Assembly: GCF_965641715.1 (NCBI RefSeq)
Contig: NZ_OZ282453.1
Source: Escherichia coli
GTDB lineage: Bacteria; Pseudomonadota; Gammaproteobacteria; Enterobacterales; Enterobacteriaceae
Strand: one strand, 5' to 3'
DNA: 64,000 nt
In this document: positions 15,142-25,919 of the stretch, piece by piece
How the letters are laid out: each line of letters starts with the position of its first letter
How positions within the stretch are numbered: the stretch's first letter is position 1
Made by a program: the position numbers and the translations under genes
Notes under the pieces: generated by a model
Databases searched by the model: none
What the model saw: the letters and a program-made list of their open reading frames with translations, nothing else
Told to the model about the DNA's origin: nothing

Positions 15142-15498
15142 ATGGAAATGAATATGAAAACTGTAACTGATGATGAATTTCGTGAGAACCTGAGTGAAAT
15201 TCTGGATTACCTTTCTTCCGGTGGCAGTGTCGTTATCACGGCGCAGGGAGGGAAGGATGTTGTTCTTGCTGGTTCTGATCTTAGTCCTGAAATACGGGCT
15301 GTCCTTGGCAAAACCAAAAAACTGCGGGATCAAATAAACAAAATGAAGCAACCACTCTTAATAAATGCAGTGAGAGATCTGGAAAAACGTCATCCAGCTC
15401 TTGTCGCACAGAGAAAAAAAGGATTGTCTTTTGAAGATGCAATGAAGCGTACAAGAGAAAAACATGCGGATATCATTAAAAAGCTTGAGGATAACTGA
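15142..15498 (+). CDS. phd: Phd/YefM-family antitoxin (118 aa, C-terminally extended)
   Basis: N-terminus ...KTVTDDEFRENLSEILDYLSSGGSVVITAQGGKDVVLAGSD has the Phd/YefM pattern; stop overlaps the doc start (ATGA at 15498). Confidence 0.7.
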   Translation: MEMNMKTVTDDEFRENLSEILDYLSSGGSVVITAQGGKDVVLAGSDLSPEIRAVLGKTKKLRDQINKMKQPLLINAVRDLEKRHPALVAQRKKGLSFEDAMKRTREKHADIIKKLEDN

Positions 15499-15905
15499 TG
15501 GACATAGTGTTTTTGTCAAAAGAACAAGTAGAACGTATCCATGCTGAAACTTTACCCCAGAGCGGAAATGCCAATGACGGGCTACTTGAAGGTGCTTTAA
15601 ATCGCGTCAGGACACTACACTACTATGAAGGGGTTGATGATATTCATGCTCTGGCTGCTATGTATTTGATTGGTATAGCCAAGGCTCATGCCTTTCATGA
15701 TGGGAATAAACGCACAGCTTTTCAGGCTGCATCAATATTTTTAATGATGAACTCTTCCGAACTTTCAAACTCCCTGCTGCTGGTTAAATTAACGGTGTTT
15801 TCAGCAATGGGGATAGCTACCCTTGAGGAAGTTACCTTTGCTTTGAAATTGCTGTCTGATTATGGCAATGAATTAATCAGCGACTACGAAGAAGATTATA
15901 TTTAA
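15498..15905 (+). CDS. doc: Doc-family toxin (Fic fold)
   Basis: 135 aa; Fic/Doc signature HAFHDGNKRTA present; coupled to the upstream antitoxin. Confidence 0.85.
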   Translation: MDIVFLSKEQVERIHAETLPQSGNANDGLLEGALNRVRTLHYYEGVDDIHALAAMYLIGIAKAHAFHDGNKRTAFQAASIFLMMNSSELSNSLLLVKLTVFSAMGIATLEEVTFALKLLSDYGNELISDYEEDYI

Positions 15906-16071
15906 TGCTGGCATACTCTGTCGTGTTAAGACAACAGCCTTTGCGGAGACAGGGCAGGGTGCCAGACTTGCCCGCAGCGCGTCTGACATGAGCAGTTATT
16001 CATCTTTTTTATTGTTTTTCTCCATGCAGGGCGACAGTGCGCCCCGATAAAATTAAAAGCCGTCAAATTCG

Positions 16072-16407
16072 TCATTCATGCGTTTTTTCTTCATGGTCTG
16101 TCACTTCTCTCCTGATAACTTCATTGCACAAATCAACGCACTCATTGCAGATGTAAACAGACGGTCCGGCAATCACCTTTGTGACTTCGTACTGGGATTT
16201 ATTGCAGAAGCTGCAATAAATCGTCTCCTCACCTGAAGTCCATGTTTTGCTGGTTTCGCCAGACATCAGTTGTTTGAGGTCTTTTTCACGACGAAGAACT
16301 ATCTGGCCACATTCAGCTATTTTTTGGATGTTGACATTTTCTTCTTTCGCCAGCGCTTCCATCCGCTCAATCAGTCGCTGCGCTTTTTCTCTGTCAATGC
16401 GTTGCAT
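16072..16407 (-). CDS. Small protein with C-terminal ClpX-type C4 zinc-binding domain
   Basis: 111 aa; C-terminus [36 protein letters not shown] matches the ClpX N-domain (LYCSFCGKSQHEV...YICDECVDLCNDII); N-terminal half predicted helical/charged. Confidence 0.7.
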
Positions 16408-16470
16408 TGTGTCCCCCTTGTTTATGTTCCCGGGTTAAAGTCATCAGGGCGGATGCGCCCTGATGTTGTG

Positions 16471-16782
16471 TTATTCGGGAAATAACGCCCGGATATTTCC
16501 GGCCATCTGACTGGTTATCTGTGCGGTTGATACTGGCTGTGACGCGGGGCGTTCTGTCCTGGTTTGTGTCACTGATAACGCTTCATCATCAGCCCATGCA
16601 GCCAGTCGGTAAGCCTCTGCCGGATTCATTTTCAGAAGTGCCAGCCCGGCCAGAAAAGCCACGCGTTGGCCGCTTTTGCGCGCTTCTGGTGTAAGGCTGT
16701 CCAGCCAGGCGCATGCTTCACCTTCGTTCTTGACGGCGGCGGGCTTCAGATAGAAACTTATCCGTCTGGTTGGAGTCGTCAT
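16471..16782 (-). CDS. parR: ParR-like DNA-binding partition adaptor; start at ATG 16782
   Basis: 103 aa from MTTPTRRISFYLKPAAV...; aligns with what I recall of R1 ParR (RRTIAFKLNPDV...LDS...AGLAL); ATG lies 5 nt after the parM stop, with AGGAG upstream. Confidence 0.55.
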   Translation of the reverse strand: MTTPTRRISFYLKPAAVKNEGEACAWLDSLTPEARKSGQRVAFLAGLALLKMNPAEAYRLAAWADDEALSVTQTRTERPASQPVSTAQITSQMAGNIRALFPE

Positions 16783-16786
16783 TGGT

Positions 16787-17746
16787 TTACTCCTTGTCCA
16801 TTGCGTACAGCCCATTAACCAGAGCAAACTGTGGCACCCCGTCCGCGATGAAAGTCGCATTAACTCCGCAGGCTTCGCGGATAGCGGGTGCCACAATCTC
16901 CGCCCCGCCACCGACAACCATCACCCGCCCGTAACCCGAAAAAACCGCCAGCGCGCGGATCACGCGTTGTTTCAGTGTTTCTTCCTTTTCACGAATAACC
17001 GCCATCAGGCTGGCGTAATGCGCGTCATTGTGGATGTGCTGGCGCAACCAGGCTTCATCATGGCGATGTTCGATAATGGTATTGGCGATGTGGTGACTGA
17101 TACGCATACCGTTAGTGGCCATCACCGACAGTACGGCATCGGCCATCAGGGAAACGCCTACGTGTGGATCGCAAAACACCTGGCTGATACCTGCCAGTTG
17201 CCCCTGAACCTTTGCCACATCCAGTGTGGTTCCGCCCAAATCCACAATCAGCAGGGATTCAAGCGGACTCATGTCAGCCAGTGCTTTAAAGCCAGCCGGA
17301 ATGGATTCAGGCATAACCCGTACGTTACGGATAGTGAATGTTTCGCCGTTCTGGTACTCCACCGGGCGCATAACGTTCGCTTTTTTGCGGCTGATGTTGG
17401 CCATGTCCGGCTGTGCGTTTGTGTCGAAATACTCGCTCAATGGCAGGGTGACAACCACATCCACCTCCTGTGGCGTGATGCCTGATTTGACCAGCGCGTG
17501 ATGAATGGCAATGACATTCACATCGCTGTACTGGTATTGCGTGTCGGTCGTCTGGACAAAGCGATCGCTGACCGGATCAAAACCATAGCGCACGCCATCA
17601 AGCATGTAGTTCGCGGGCTGCGAGCCACCGAACGGCGCAGACCATTCCGACTTGAAGCTGTTCGGGCTGATGGCGTTGCGGCGTTCGCCGTTCTCAGTCC
17701 ATGCCAGCTTGATGTTGGTGGAGCCGTCGTCGATACAAATTTTCAT
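16787..17746 (-). CDS. parM: ParM/StbA actin-like partition ATPase
   Basis: 319 aa; MKICIDDGSTNIKL..., ISPNSF, YSDVNV, KKAN, FTI.NV.VMPESIPAG, DLGGTTLD and VMV.GGGAE blocks parallel plasmid R1 ParM. Confidence 0.9.
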   Translation of the reverse strand: MKICIDDGSTNIKLAWTENGERRNAISPNSFKSEWSAPFGGSQPANYMLDGVRYGFDPVSDRFVQTTDTQYQYSDVNVIAIHHALVKSGITPQEVDVVVTLPLSEYFDTNAQPDMANISRKKANVMRPVEYQNGETFTIRNVRVMPESIPAGFKALADMSPLESLLIVDLGGTTLDVAKVQGQLAGISQVFCDPHVGVSLMADAVLSVMATNGMRISHHIANTIIEHRHDEAWLRQHIHNDAHYASLMAVIREKEETLKQRVIRALAVFSGYGRVMVVGGGAEIVAPAIREACGVNATFIADGVPQFALVNGLYAMDKE

Positions 17747-17783: not shown

Positions 17784-17890
17784 GGATTTTTAAATCCCGC
17801 TTTTGCCTGTTTTGTGCGCGCTTCATATATCGCGGCACGTTTTTTGCTCATTTATGGGATTTGTGAATCCCGTTTCTGTCTGTTTTTTGT
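17784..17890. repeat. Two imperfect 33-bp direct repeats, each with a GGGATT/AATCCC hairpin and T-run, upstream of parM and overlapping the 3' end of gene A
   Basis: GGATTTTTAAATCCCGCTTTTGCCTGTTTTGTG (17784-17816) and GGATTTGTGAATCCCGTTTCTGTCTGTTTTTTGT (17857-17890). Confidence 0.5.
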
Positions 17891-20645
17891 TTCCACTGGT
17901 CAGGCCACCCCGCAGCAGGTCTGCTTTGCGGCTGGCGCGTTCAGTGGTTTCACTGATTCTCTGTGCGTGCTCTGCGTCGCGGATGGCGCGCAGCATGTCA
18001 GAAAGCACGGTAACGGGTGTTTTCATGGTGTTCTGGTCCTGCTGAAGTGTGGATGCCAGGCGTGCGGCGGCTTCAGGGTCTGATGCCCCCAGCTGTGCCA
18101 GATAGCTGGCGACCGGGTTATGGCGGATCTCCGTGCTGCTTACGCCATGATTACGGCTCAGGCGCTGCCAGAGCTGCGTGATTCGGCTGTCCGGGCGGGT
18201 ATCCGGTTTGCGTACAATTTCAAATCCCTGCGGTGCAATGATGCTGCCGTCAACGTACAGACTGCCGCCCCGTAACAGGTGCTGCATCTGTTGTTCACCG
18301 ATATGCAGGCCGAGAGATTCAGCAGACTCCCGCCATTCTTTAGCGAGTAATTCGTGGTTATCAGGCAAAGGCCGTGGCTGTTTGCGGCTCTGTGTCCAGC
18401 TCTGCATTTCATCACTGCTGTTTTTTGCCTGTTTGTCACGAAGCGAACGCATCAGCGCCCGGCGTTCGTGCCGTTTCAGTGAGCGCATCCATTCGTTCAC
18501 GTCAACGCCGTCAGGAAGCTGCGGCCACGGTGCTGGCCGTTCTTTCGACTGTTCTGTCCCGCTGTTGCCTGTTTCCTGTACACGGGGACAGTTATTGCCA
18601 CGAGTCCAAGGGGCGGCAGGGCCGCCCTGAAGGTCAAAACCATTTTCGCGGGCGCTGTCTTCCGTTTCCGGTTTACGTCTTACCAGTTTCCAGTTATCCG
18701 GATGCGTGCACACACGGGAGGATTCCCCGATGAGTGGTGACCAGATCCCGTAAATCTGTACGCTCTGTTCGCCGTAATCATTCAGCTCATCTGCGAGGTC
18801 GTAGGCGGTGCGAATCAGGTAGTCTTTGCGTGGAACAAGTACGCCGCCCTGTTTTTCAATGTAGGTGGCAAAACACCCGGCATCGGCGGCAGCGAGTACC
18901 GCATCCATTGCGTCATCTTTCAGTCGTTGCGGGCCTTCCGGGTTGCGTGCCATCTGGCTGGCAAGGCGGCGCAGTTCACGCCACACCTGACGGGAGGGGA
19001 TGCCAAAGAACTGGAACTGGCGGACCCGATGAAGGCGCGCCCAGCCGATGGCGCGCTCCACACTCTCGGCCATTGATTTTCCGGTTTCGTGGTCAACGCG
19101 TGGCTTGCCCGTTTTCGGGTCGATGCCATCCACGGCGCGGCTGTCCAGGTTCTTTCCGATGTAGGTCGCGATATAGCTGGTTGGTGTGCCTTTTGAGCCG
19201 TCGACATACTCCGCCTTAAAGCGCGGAGTAATATCATTGCCCAGCTCGTGGCGGTCTTCCTGAATGGCAATATCGCGGGTGATGGCCACGATGCTGTCGA
19301 TTTCTTCCGGATGAGCAAAGACCATCATATGCCAGTGCACGGTGCCGTCATGGTGAGGCTCCACCGTGCGGATGCCATACCAGCGAAGACCGTCGCGGTT
19401 CAGTTTTTTGCGGACCGCCGCAAAAAACGTGTTAACCAGGTAATCGCTGGAGTCGCGCATGGTGGCCCCGTTCCATTTGGGATTCGGATGACCGTTCTCT
19501 GTTGTGGCGTGGTATTTTGACGGGCAGGTGACAGTCAGAAACACCGCTTTGTCGCCACGGGCTTCGGCCAGAAGTTCCAGCCCCTTCATGGTGGCCATCA
19601 TTTCTGCCTTACGGTGAACCGGGTTACTTACTCCCGCGTAATACACCGTCTCGAGATCAATCGTGAACCCGTCTTCATTTTCCAGCATGAAACTTTTCAG
19701 GAAATCGCGTGTTTTCTCGCGCTGTGCGCGAAACTCGCTTAACGCGTCCTGGCTCAGATAGGGCGATGTTTTTCTGGAAACCAGACAGGCGGCGCGGAGT
19801 TGTTCTTCTCTCCACTCGCAACGTAACAGCCACAGTTTGCGTTTCCACCATTCTGCACAGGTCAGGCGAAGGATTGCGCCCGGCAGCAGCTCCGTGTCCG
19901 GTTCGTTCCTCTGGTCTTTGTCTGTTGTCAGTGCGTCATAATGTGGAGGCATGGCGTGCAGGTGTAACGCCATGCGGGCCAGCATCTGATACGCCTTCAG
20001 CGTTACATCCATGGTCAGTTCGCCATCGGTCGCGCCAAAGCCATCGCAGAGTTTTTCGAAGGTGCTGCTGAACATCGCCGCCGTCATGGTGGCCAGTGTC
20101 TGTATCTGGTGTTTGTTGAGCTGCGGCAGGTAAAGCAAATCGTCCAGGCGTTCGCGTCCGGCAAGGGAGCGATAACCCTGTGTCAGCCAGCGGTGATCGG
20201 TGCGCTCCAGACGTTCGAATATTTTGCGCAGGTTTCCGCGCGCGTAGCGTTCAGCCTGCCAGCTCTTTTTGCCTTTCTGACGATCGGCTTCCTGTTTTTT
20301 GCGCAGGAAGGAGAGGTGGCGAATAAGCGGATCGCGCAGATAGGACGGCAGCAGGCGCAGCGAGGCCATGGCTTCATCCACCGCGCCGCGTGCCTGTTTT
20401 CTGGCATCTCCTGCCAGTGTGATGGTTTTGTCCTGTTTTTCCTGTGCGTCCAGGCTTTTATTAATCAGGTTGCCCAGCGGCGTTGCGGAGAACGCCGCAT
20501 CAGCCATTTCCTGGCGGTGCTCGTTCTCTACCCGGTAGGCATCCAGCCAGGAGGAAAGCGCGGATTCAGGAGCGGGGATCCCCGTTCCTTCACGCCCCAC
20601 TGCGTGGCGCGGTTGTTGCCAGTCCCTGATGTACTCTGCCGTCAT
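17823..20645 (-). CDS. Replication initiation protein (P2 gpA-like rolling-circle endonuclease)
   Basis: 940 aa; P2 A position; HUH-like motif ...HHDGTVHWHMMVF...; translationally coupled to the upstream 121-aa ORF. Confidence 0.65.
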   Translation of the reverse strand: MTAEYIRDWQQPRHAVGREGTGIPAPESALSSWLDAYRVENEHRQEMADAAFSATPLGNLINKSLDAQEKQDKTITLAGDARKQARGAVDEAMASLRLLPSYLRDPLIRHLSFLRKKQEADRQKGKKSWQAERYARGNLRKIFERLERTDHRWLTQGYRSLAGRERLDDLLYLPQLNKHQIQTLATMTAAMFSSTFEKLCDGFGATDGELTMDVTLKAYQMLARMALHLHAMPPHYDALTTDKDQRNEPDTELLPGAILRLTCAEWWKRKLWLLRCEWREEQLRAACLVSRKTSPYLSQDALSEFRAQREKTRDFLKSFMLENEDGFTIDLETVYYAGVSNPVHRKAEMMATMKGLELLAEARGDKAVFLTVTCPSKYHATTENGHPNPKWNGATMRDSSDYLVNTFFAAVRKKLNRDGLRWYGIRTVEPHHDGTVHWHMMVFAHPEEIDSIVAITRDIAIQEDRHELGNDITPRFKAEYVDGSKGTPTSYIATYIGKNLDSRAVDGIDPKTGKPRVDHETGKSMAESVERAIGWARLHRVRQFQFFGIPSRQVWRELRRLASQMARNPEGPQRLKDDAMDAVLAAADAGCFATYIEKQGGVLVPRKDYLIRTAYDLADELNDYGEQSVQIYGIWSPLIGESSRVCTHPDNWKLVRRKPETEDSARENGFDLQGGPAAPWTRGNNCPRVQETGNSGTEQSKERPAPWPQLPDGVDVNEWMRSLKRHERRALMRSLRDKQAKNSSDEMQSWTQSRKQPRPLPDNHELLAKEWRESAESLGLHIGEQQMQHLLRGGSLYVDGSIIAPQGFEIVRKPDTRPDSRITQLWQRLSRNHGVSSTEIRHNPVASYLAQLGASDPEAAARLASTLQQDQNTMKTPVTVLSDMLRAIRDAEHAQRISETTERASRKADLLRGGLTSGNKKQTETGFTNPINEQKTCRDI

Positions 20646-24756: not shown

Positions 24757-25761
24757 ATGTCGATTAAGAAGCTCGAAGATGGTCGTTATTTGCTGGACAT
24801 CAGGCCGAACGGACGCAAGGGAAAGCGCGTGCGTAAGGTATTTGACAAAAAATCGGTAGCGGTGGCCACTGAACGCTACATCATGGCGAACGCTGAAAAG
24901 CGGGAATATATACAGGGCTACCGTGATCGTCGAACGCTAAATGATTTGCTTGAGTTGTGGTGGATGTATCACGGCCAGCACAGGCGTAAGGCGGAAGAAG
25001 ACCGAAAACAACTGCGCAACATAATCAATGAGCTTGGCGCTGATATGCAGGCTGTGGATCTTGATAAGCTGAAAATTATCGCGTGGCGTTCTCAAAAGAT
25101 AGCTGAAGGATTGAAACCGTCATCTGCTAACAGGTACATGAATCGGTTATCCGGAATGTTTACCGTGCTGAAAAAAATAGGTCTTTGGGATGCAGAACAT
25201 CCAGTAAGGGGAATTTCTATTCTTTATGTATCTCCACGAGAAATGGCGTTCCTGTCACAGAAGGAAGTGGCGCTATTGCTCGATACACTGGAGGGCGACT
25301 ACTGGCGTGTTGCGCTTTTGTGTTTAAGCACAGGGGCGCGCTGGAGTGAAGCTTGTAAGCTTCGTGGTGAACAGATAGTTCATAACCGTGTAACGTTTCT
25401 TGAAACCAAAAATGGCCGGAAGAGAACAGTGCCAATTTCGCAGGCAGTTTGTGAGGCGATCAAAACCAGAGAAACAGGCGGCTTGTTTGAGGTGAAGTAC
25501 CGGGAATTCTGCCTGGCGCTGAAAAGAGTTAAGCCCGACTTACCAAAAGGCCAGGCTGCACATGTGCTGCGGCATACGTTCGCCAGCCATTTTGTGATGA
25601 ACGGAGGAAACATTATTGCGCTTCAGAAGATTCTTGGTCACGCAACCATTCAGCAAACAATGGCATATGCGCATTTTGCACCGGATTACCTGCAGGATGC
25701 GGTGGCCCTTAATCCGCTGAAAGGTGGCGTAAGTGTCCACGCAGTGTCCACGGGGGATTAA
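24757..25761 (+). CDS. int: Tyrosine integrase, P2 type
   Basis: MSIKKLEDGRYLLDIRPNGRKGKRVRKVFDKKS... parallels the P2 Int N-terminus; ATG 24757 preceded by GGAGGG; C-terminal catalytic region HVLRHTFASHFVMNGG...LGH. Confidence 0.9.
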   Translation: MSIKKLEDGRYLLDIRPNGRKGKRVRKVFDKKSVAVATERYIMANAEKREYIQGYRDRRTLNDLLELWWMYHGQHRRKAEEDRKQLRNIINELGADMQAVDLDKLKIIAWRSQKIAEGLKPSSANRYMNRLSGMFTVLKKIGLWDAEHPVRGISILYVSPREMAFLSQKEVALLLDTLEGDYWRVALLCLSTGARWSEACKLRGEQIVHNRVTFLETKNGRKRTVPISQAVCEAIKTRETGGLFEVKYREFCLALKRVKPDLPKGQAAHVLRHTFASHFVMNGGNIIALQKILGHATIQQTMAYAHFAPDYLQDAVALNPLKGGVSVHAVSTGD

Positions 25762-25919
25762 TTTTATATAGCCTGAAACGGCTTAAAGGGCGATACTGAA
25801 TAACAATTTTTCAGTATTGCCCGTCTAAATGGTTATGTTGTTATCTGTATGATTATTAATGTTTTTTCAGATTAAACAGCAGTTTGCAAATGGGCGTTTG
25901 TTGATAAAGGAGCCTTAGA

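Follow-up and report, generated by a model that had tools for sequence, protein, structure and literature searches.

What use would a bacteriophage make of the docking domain of a host protein unfoldase when the unfoldase itself is left behind? This question is raised by a gene of a P2-like prophage, which lies in a stretch of 64,000 nucleotides of Escherichia coli DNA (assembly GCF_965641715.1, contig NZ_OZ282453.1; the whole stretch is referred to as the window). The gene encodes a small protein that carries a zinc-binding domain (ZBD) of the ClpX type, called here the stand-alone ClpX zinc-finger (ZnF) protein. The reading favoured here, to which a probability of about one half is given, is that the ZnF protein mimics, in free form, the N-domain of ClpX and competes for the adaptors and substrates that dock on the ZBD. 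The gene and its parts are located as follows.

16072..16407, minus strand: coding sequence of the ZnF protein (open reading frame (ORF) list; Prokaryotic Genome Annotation Pipeline (PGAP) at RM10740; PF06689; phrog_6797)
16412..16419, minus strand: Shine-Dalgarno sequence AAGGGGGA, read from the sequence, 4 nt 5′ of the ZnF ATG
16261..16407, minus strand: family-specific N-terminal helical hairpin, codons 1–49 (AlphaFold model)
16225..16260, minus strand: disordered, variable linker, codons 50–61 (AlphaFold; alignment)
16102..16224, minus strand: ClpX-type C4 ZBD, codons 62–102 (Pfam, PDB, alignment, model superposition)

The reading frame starts with ATG, has a ribosome-binding site graded as strong and yields a product of 111 amino acids. 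The 3 kb around the gene match the chromosome of E. coli RM10740 with 100% identity, and in the PGAP annotation of that identical locus the product is called 'ClpX C4-type zinc finger protein' (WP_001561007.1). The host element is a prophage of the P88 type (genus Xuanwuvirus, Peduoviridae, P2-like), which resides in the E. coli chromosome.

The identity of the C-terminal part as a stand-alone ClpX ZBD is far beyond chance. The Pfam family zf-C4_ClpX (PF06689) matches residues 64–99 with an independent E-value of 3.1e-17 and 62.6 bits, covering model positions 2–38 of 39, and a phmmer comparison with PDB sequences returns the ZBD of E. coli ClpX (1ovx, E=2.3e-19; 2ds5, E=9.4e-19). Over the 41 residues 62–102, aligned with residues 12–52 of E. 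coli ClpX, the amino acid identity is 73%. The predicted zinc ligands are C65, C68, C87 and C90, in the spacing C65-x2-C68-x18-C87-x2-C90, and the four cysteines are invariant in every aligned member of the family. In the predicted model (AlphaFold 2), the domain has the ZBD fold, with two short strands and a helix at the C-terminal end, and superposes on the structures 2ds5, 2ds6 and 2ds8 within 0.6–0.8 Å over 38–42 residues, with template modelling (TM) scores, taken on the target, of 0.88–0.92. The residues equivalent to the hydrophobic patch of ClpX are F67, which corresponds to F16, and V97, which corresponds to I46. F67 is invariant and I98 nearly invariant across the diverged family, and position 97 is isoleucine or valine in all aligned members, with isoleucine in most of them and valine here.

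The remainder of ClpX is missing. The AAA+ module with its pore and IGF loops was not found with the ClpX unfoldase models TIGR00382 and NF003745: the NCBIfam clpX model TIGR00382 reaches 49.3 bits against a cutoff of 370.75 and aligns at its positions 6–53 only, and the protein stops at residue 111. The initial annotation, which was made from the sequence alone, had described a C-terminal ClpX ZBD behind a helical N-terminal part and the absence of an AAA+ module, and it had made the domain assignment depend on the cysteine spacing modelling as a ClpX ZBD fold. The profile matches, the superposition and the helix prediction described below agree with this description throughout.

The origin of the domain can be judged from its codons. 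Compared with E. coli clpX, the codons of the ZBD show 64% DNA identity, and their synonymous sites are saturated (proportion of synonymous differences, pS, 0.92); a recent capture or a fragment of the host clpX is ruled out by these values. Since the synonymous sites are saturated while the amino acid identity has been kept, the ZBD was captured long ago and is no recent fragment of a gene. Such a pattern, at the level of the sequence, argues for long-term selection on a ClpX-like surface.

The N-terminal part defines the family. Two helices are predicted at residues 6–22 and 27–49, with a predicted local distance difference test (pLDDT) score of 84–94 in the AlphaFold model, and they are followed by the linker, in which pLDDT falls below 50 at residues 54–59 and which differs across the family in both length and sequence. 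The profile of the hairpin matches only about 15 clusters among 1.84e9 protein representatives; the near-full-length matches inspected (109–129 amino acids) all carry a C-terminal ZBD, and the shorter matches are fragments. No relatives of the hairpin outside the family were found by profile searches of PDB sequences, Pfam, NCBIfam or the 1.84e9 representatives, and a Foldseek comparison of the ZnF model with the PDB returned matches for the ZBD only and none for the hairpin. The protein as a whole belongs to phrog_6797, a family of unknown function (E=1.6e-57, residues 1–105 against profile positions 5–106 of 107), which is also matched by a divergent copy (L084).

The ZnF gene is maintained. 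The P88-type copies in IMG/VR are all intact (33 of 33, representing 21 alleles), and the ratio of nonsynonymous to synonymous polymorphism (pN/pS), calculated from about 20 alleles, is 0.38 in the N-domain, 0.39 in the ZBD and 0.62 in the linker. A label of 'carboxylate--amine ligase' is attached to P88 gp19 (L001, 4002–4334), to D6 orf93 (L004, 4980–5300) and to many GenBank entries. This identity is without support in any profile search and is rejected.

The function proposed for the ZnF protein follows what is described for the host domain. In ClpX, the N-domain serves as the platform on which SspB, RssB, trigger factor, lambda O, MuA and FtsZ dock; ssrA-tagged proteins do not need it (PMC5415555, PMC7804408, PMC7226468). 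The hydrophobic patch formed by F16 and I46 is used by lambda O, trigger factor, SspB and RssB (PMC7804408). The free ZBD of E. coli dimerises, with self-crosslinking reported (PMC7226468), and the isolated domain supplied in trans inhibits RssB-mediated breakdown of sigma-S by ClpXP (Micevski 2020, PMC7226468, Fig. 1d).

The mechanism suggested here, from zinc binding and dimerisation to the timing of expression, the decoy action and its clients, would proceed as follows. The ZBD presumably dimerises as it does in ClpX, and a flexible linker connects it to the family-specific hairpin in front of it. Because the docking surface is kept and the ATPase and the ClpP-binding loops are absent, the ZnF protein should bind those proteins which dock on the ClpX N-domain. 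The predicted partners are the adaptors SspB and RssB, partners of the UmuD type and substrates like lambda O and MuA that depend on the N-domain. Adaptors and substrates bound in this way would be withheld from ClpXP. The likely beneficiary would be an unstable early protein of the phage (most obviously the replication initiator encoded next door) and/or regulators of the host or the prophage that are labile, such as antitoxins.

The timing of such an action depends on the position of the gene, whose surroundings contain the following features.

16442..16465, no strand assigned: perfect 10-bp GC-rich hairpin in the ParR–ZnF spacer (terminator scan; RNA fold −25.2 kcal/mol, z=−4.8)
16471..16782, minus strand: ParR-like 'plasmid partitioning/stability family protein', 103 amino acids (phrog_2515 partition protein, E=1e-58; PGAP)
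16787..17746, minus strand: ParM (StbA) actin-like segregation ATPase, 319 amino acids (phrog_691, E=1.6e-89; PGAP)
17823..20645, minus strand: P2 gpA-type replication endonuclease (ORF list, PGAP; homologous loci carry Phage_GPA)
15154..15905, plus strand: convergent phd (15154–15498) and doc (15498–15905), hotspot cargo (PGAP; TIGR01550, TIGR01552, phrog_375)

The order on the minus strand runs from Cox to the gpA-type endonuclease, ParM, the ParR-like protein and finally ZnF, which is the last co-oriented gene of the early gpA replication operon. Beyond it lie the convergent phd/doc pair on the plus strand and then the cos region, the portal and the terminase. The spacer that separates ParR from ZnF measures 63 bp, both genes are on the same strand, and a promoter scan of this spacer revealed no promoter-like site. 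Transcribed last in the early operon, the ZnF gene would be expressed when the prophage enters lytic growth. The hairpin within the spacer has a T-rich tail on the plus strand only, the coding strand being without one, and because of this it is terminator-like towards transcription entering from the side of the hotspot cargo. In phage P884B11, which is without the ZnF gene, the homology spans this hairpin and ends at 16416; the hairpin is probably a boundary element rather than a part of the ZnF gene. As the patch residues are kept, the spacer shows no promoter-like site and the T-tail is found only on the opposite strand, a decoy made together with the early genes is the simplest reading.

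The interval between gpA and portal is the cos-proximal hotspot of P2-like phages, which in P2 contains old and tin and in which anti-phage systems abound (Rousset et al. 2022, PMC9122126). The ZnF gene is positioned at the edge of this hotspot. The ParM/ParR pair (16471–17746) is complete and belongs to the core genes of the integrated P2-like prophage, and P88 has been flagged as a possible phage-plasmid with episomal and integrated states (Pfeifer et al. 2021, PMC7969092). The integrase, at about 24764–25768 by coordinates mapped from the RM10740 annotation, adjoins pdxB. At positions 1–2371 of the window, directly after a phage tail gene, stands ISCro1, an element of the IS66 family with tnpA, tnpB and transposase. 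This element probably interrupts the tail-fibre region, and the prophage may therefore be defective.

How closely is the gene bound to its neighbours? The initial annotation had taken it for the third gene of the parMR operon, which agrees with the shared strand, the spacer of 63 bp and the lack of a promoter-like site in it, but a conserved co-occurrence with parMR was not observed. The ZnF gene is present in 111 of 5426 complete E. coli genomes, and DNA of the ParMR-replication region in 1328 of them. The accessible part of Table S5 of Rousset et al. 2022 contains 43 zf-C4_ClpX rows against 489 StbA rows (PMC9122126). In other xuanwuviruses the slot after ParR is filled by an Ea22-like gene (P884B11) or by unrelated genes, and homology breaks off precisely where ZnF starts (16416), where ParR stops (16471) or where ZnF stops (16075). 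From these counts and breakpoints it follows that ZnF is the first, optional gene past the conserved core, and not an integral gene of parMR.

What is conserved around the family is the end of the early replication operon in P2-like phages and, in phage-plasmids, the regions of early accessory genes. ZnF comes after gpA, with or without ParMR, in at least 12 P2-like lineages that have diverged (30–70% identity). In these relatives one or two small ORFs separate it from gpA, all reading in the same direction, and Ogr, cos and portal follow (loci compared: L014, L016, L117, L118, L121, L050/51, L079-81, L082/86, L083, L084, L090/94/97); the hosts of such prophages are E. coli, Salmonella and others. 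Because the position beside replication initiators recurs, an unstable replication or other early protein may be the protected client. An identical member of 128 amino acids from Salmonella (P0019) is found behind two gpA modules (L117 versus L118/L119), which consist of a gpA of 763 amino acids with two small ORFs and a gpA of 838 amino acids with one small ORF. The presence of the same protein behind different gpA modules indicates that the ZnF gene has been swapped between P2-like backbones by recombination.

The second set of homologues, with about 50% identity, is found in phage-plasmids of the D6 and SSU5 types, from which ParMR is absent. Here ZnF sits in strings of early accessory genes of the Ea22/EaA type, in most cases with an Ea22-like gene on one side and a phrog_6026 protein on the other. 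In this set (L005, 5300–5830; L052–L078) the phrog_6026/phrog_368 protein, of about 176 amino acids, nearly always follows ZnF with overlapping stop and start codons, and such a constant neighbour may reflect shared ancestry only. A fixed downstream partner for the family as a whole was considered and rejected: the next gene varies between P88 gp20, a 174-amino-acid protein, the phrog_6026 protein and phd/doc.

Shorter ZBDs are also encoded by other phages. An example is gp081 of Pseudomonas phage PP9W2 (L115, 2495–2692, plus strand), a stand-alone ZBD of 65 amino acids located in a nin-like region after DnaB. In the Klebsiella lambdoid phage ST846-OXA48phi9.2 (L116, 2501–2722, plus strand), an unannotated ORF of 73 amino acids with a ClpX-type zinc finger is placed between cII and O-like/DnaC-like replication genes. 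Phages more widely may carry free ZBDs next to their replication genes.

Several observations weigh against the decoy. The published inhibition was obtained with 5–20 µM free ZBD against 0.6 µM ClpXP (PMC7226468), so that a decoy would have to be expressed strongly or to gain further avidity. A pure decoy model leaves the conserved N-terminal hairpin without a role; the hairpin could add avidity by oligomerisation, or it could act as a tethered adaptor or a poison through mixed dimers with ClpX. The timing of expression is deduced from gene order only. The gene is accessory, being carried by about 8% of ParMR-bearing P88-like prophages, and the pN/pS of about 0.4 indicates only moderate constraint. 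Moreover, the surfaces of the ZBD are not all fixed, since the D6/SSU5 branch has GDAVF in the place of GPSVY. The searchable literature contains no functional study of any phage-encoded stand-alone ZBD.

The neighbouring phd/doc pair deserves a separate account, as the initial annotation had placed it 170 bp away and had suggested that the ZnF protein could tune the degradation of Phd, ParR or phage proteins by ClpXP. The convergent pair is indeed present, and the stop codons of ZnF and doc are 166 bp apart. Doc matches TIGR01550 with 53.6 bits, above the cutoff, and Phd matches TIGR01552 below the cutoff and phrog_375 with E=4e-5. With 114 amino acids, Phd (15154–15498) is unusually long, and its match to Phd models is weak. 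Its C-terminal motif GLSFE(D/E)A..(K/R)HAD(I/V)IK.LE(D/N)N, presumably the Doc-binding segment, is kept in a homologue of 29% identity (L013).

The idea of Phd/Doc and ZnF as a conserved module did not hold. Among the E. coli genomes, 19 have this phd/doc allele, 17 of them in the arrangement of the window, including the ZnF gene. As all 19 copies are at least 99% identical, they represent one recent acquisition in E. coli. In the two remaining genomes, UPEC132 (L011, 3013–3949) and 300444 (L012), the pair is kept and ZnF, ParR and most of ParM are deleted; in this deletion variant of the prophage, phd/doc lies 20 bp from a ParM stub of 54 amino acids. The pair is therefore maintained without ZnF and ParR. 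Within the Doc subfamily, six of about eight lineages (IMG/VR, GTDB) have no ZnF gene within 6 kb, and related Phd/Doc pairs without it in this range are found in Citrobacter youngae, in the same hotspot, and in five or six viral lineages (L103, L106–L111).

A second, diverged co-occurrence is found at L013/L083, where Doc is 58%, Phd 29% and ZnF 34% identical. The order of the genes differs, as phd/doc stands upstream of ZnF, on the opposite strand and beside a ParR-like remnant. At L083 (4825–5630, 6233–6885) this toxin–antitoxin pair lies between the small ORF that follows gpA and the ParR-like remnant, which is 40% identical and without an intact ORF. Downstream of ZnF in the same locus stand an ORF of 92 amino acids and a helix-turn-helix-like protein of 125 amino acids (phrog_11214), possibly another two-gene cassette. 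A scan of GTDB by Doc patterns, which were too narrow, gave a single locus, and no Doc homologues were found in isolated phage genomes by tblastn; the Doc/ZnF association thus rests on few lineages.

The junction itself records an earlier state of the locus. The remnant of the 5′ end of a 174-amino-acid gene is found directly downstream of ZnF (about 15926–16013, minus strand); its homology ends at about 15931, which places the junction at about 15926–15931. The gene is intact in strain CDE6306 and at L022, L036 and L121, and it adjoins ZnF in other prophages. Because this remnant lies between the ZnF stop and doc, phd/doc has replaced an earlier cargo. An ORF of 49 amino acids at 15926–16075 is probably not a gene. 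Phd/Doc is hotspot cargo and not a conserved module with ZnF, the second co-occurrence being suggestive at best. The parMR and Phd/Doc story from which the initial annotation had started was mostly not borne out.

The main rival to the decoy makes use of the same domain in a different way. In this model, which is judged unlikely, the phage ZBD pairs with the ClpX N-domain and plants the hairpin on the hexamer, where the hairpin either blocks the movement or docking of the N-domain or recruits a hairpin-bound target for unfolding or degradation. The ZBD is a dimerisation domain, for which the self-crosslinking provides evidence (PMC7226468), and the identity to the host domain is 73%. The conserved family-specific N-domain on a flexible linker fits a layout of dock plus cargo, so that the hairpin is accounted for. 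Wojtyra is said to have described the ZBD as a dimerisation domain in 2003. Heterodimers are, however, without support, and a newly made ZnF protein is more likely to pair with itself. Further from the decoy is a function unrelated to ClpX, in which the zinc ribbon and the hairpin form a small regulator that binds nucleic acid or protein and the likeness to ClpX reflects ancestry only. Small C4 zinc proteins are common as phage regulators, Ogr/Delta adjoin ZnF in several homologous loci, and the N-domain is of unknown function. Such a regulator is nevertheless quite improbable: the 73% identity kept despite saturated synonymous change indicates selection beyond a zinc knuckle, and a Pfam profile search showed no likeness to the Ogr/Delta or DksA/TraR families.

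Two further explanations give the protein a dedicated role in the lysogen or at its induction. A tuner of Phd/Doc (or ParR) would stabilise Phd against ClpXP, for example in order to avoid the action of the prophage's own Doc at induction. Phd of phage P1 is degraded by ClpXP, which is general knowledge and concerns the P1 protein, not the long Phd found here. The two diverged co-occurrences in P2-like hotspots (the E. coli allele and L013/L083) mean that two of four hotspot Doc lineages have ZnF, which gives p~0.05 if a crude base rate of 10% is assumed. Against these points stand the single event behind the E. coli association, with its copies at least 99% identical, the two genomes that keep phd/doc after the loss of ZnF, and the related pairs without ZnF in C. 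youngae, L103 and L106–L111. Furthermore, about 85% of the E. coli ZnF occurrences are without phd/doc (17 of 111 have it), order and spacing are not fixed, and about 92% of the ParMR occurrences are without the ZnF gene, all of which makes a dedicated tuner very improbable. The least probable explanation is a defence or exclusion factor of the hotspot, a decoy that is expressed constitutively in the lysogen and blocks invaders which need the ClpX N-domain, such as transposable phages of the Mu type. The transpososome of such phages must be remodelled by ClpX. Recognition of MuA requires the ClpX N-domain (PMC5415555), and ZnF is variably present at the edge of a hotspot rich in anti-phage systems (PMC9122126). 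A comparison with the defence-system protein models of PADLOC-DB 2.0 gave no family at E<=0.01, the gene has no promoter-like site of its own and is co-oriented with a repressed early operon, and its D6/SSU5 homologues are found in early accessory strings and not in defence islands. In the accessible portions of the supplementary files of Rousset et al. 2022 besides Table S5, including the table of evaluated defence systems, ClpX is not mentioned (PMC9122126).

The domain, the PGAP gene name and the presence of the locus in the catalogue of Rousset et al. 2022 (PMC9122126) were already known. If the decoy is true, the novelty lies in the way in which a phage modulates an AAA+ protease of its host, namely through a copy of the protease's own docking domain, and mimicking a domain of an unfoldase would represent a previously undescribed principle of host takeover. 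The protein would also offer research a ready-made selective inhibitor of adaptor-dependent proteolysis by ClpXP, and a possible account of how prophages with protease-triggered toxin–antitoxin cargo avoid self-killing. If the decoy is false, what is left is a protein of unknown function with an annotated domain, encoded in a hotspot that was already known. ClpXP sets the stability of phage replication proteins such as lambda O and MuA, of antitoxins and sigma-S, and of proteins that act in the SOS response and in division. A broader and tentative proposal, which we consider possible rather than likely, is that free copies of the ClpX docking domain, encoded by Peduoviridae and D6/SSU5 phage-plasmids and in shorter form by lambdoid and Pseudomonas phages, form a general class that reprograms ClpXP. 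The members of such a class would titrate adaptors and substrates, stabilise replication initiators and antitoxins and, in the present prophage, allow escape from its own Phd/Doc abortive module at induction.

The searchable literature describes no natural protein that acts by copying the ClpX docking domain, and the ZnF protein can be compared with several known systems. Phage modulators of host proteases include lambda CIII, which acts on FtsH, T4 PinA and T7 Gp4.5, which act on Lon, and lambda RexB, which affects the ClpP-dependent decay of antitoxins. These are small early or accessory phage proteins which protect labile proteins from a host AAA+ protease, as is proposed for ZnF. To our knowledge, none of them copies a domain of the protease itself or targets docking on the ClpX N-domain, and none is homologous to ZnF. 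The anti-adaptors IraD, IraM and IraP are likewise small proteins that spare a ClpXP substrate, in their case by occupying RssB, where the sites of the ZBD and IraD overlap (PMC7226468). In contrast to ZnF, the Ira proteins are stress-induced by the host and specific for RssB, and they have no relation to ZnF in sequence or fold.

Closer to ZnF are the short ZBD ORFs of phages (phrog_12435, phrog_5259; PP9W2 gp081), which consist of the ZBD only, lie beside replication or nin-type early genes and are uncharacterised; the ORFs of phrog_12435 and phrog_5259 differ from ZnF in lacking the N-terminal hairpin that defines phrog_6797. The ClpX N-domain shares with ZnF the fold, the C4 spacing, 73% identity and the patch equivalent to F16 and I46. 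In ClpX, however, the domain is N-terminal and is carried on an AAA+ unfoldase, whereas the ZBD of ZnF is C-terminal, stands behind a hairpin and a linker and is encoded by phages and phage-plasmids. The isolated ClpX ZBD was reportedly used by Wojtyra in 2003 as an in vitro competitor. The nearest parallel is the isolated ClpX ZBD made in the laboratory (Micevski 2020, PMC7226468), which is, like ZnF, a free ZBD without an ATPase. The former is a laboratory fragment for which inhibition has been demonstrated, whereas the latter is a natural, selected gene with an additional domain, for which inhibition is predicted only.

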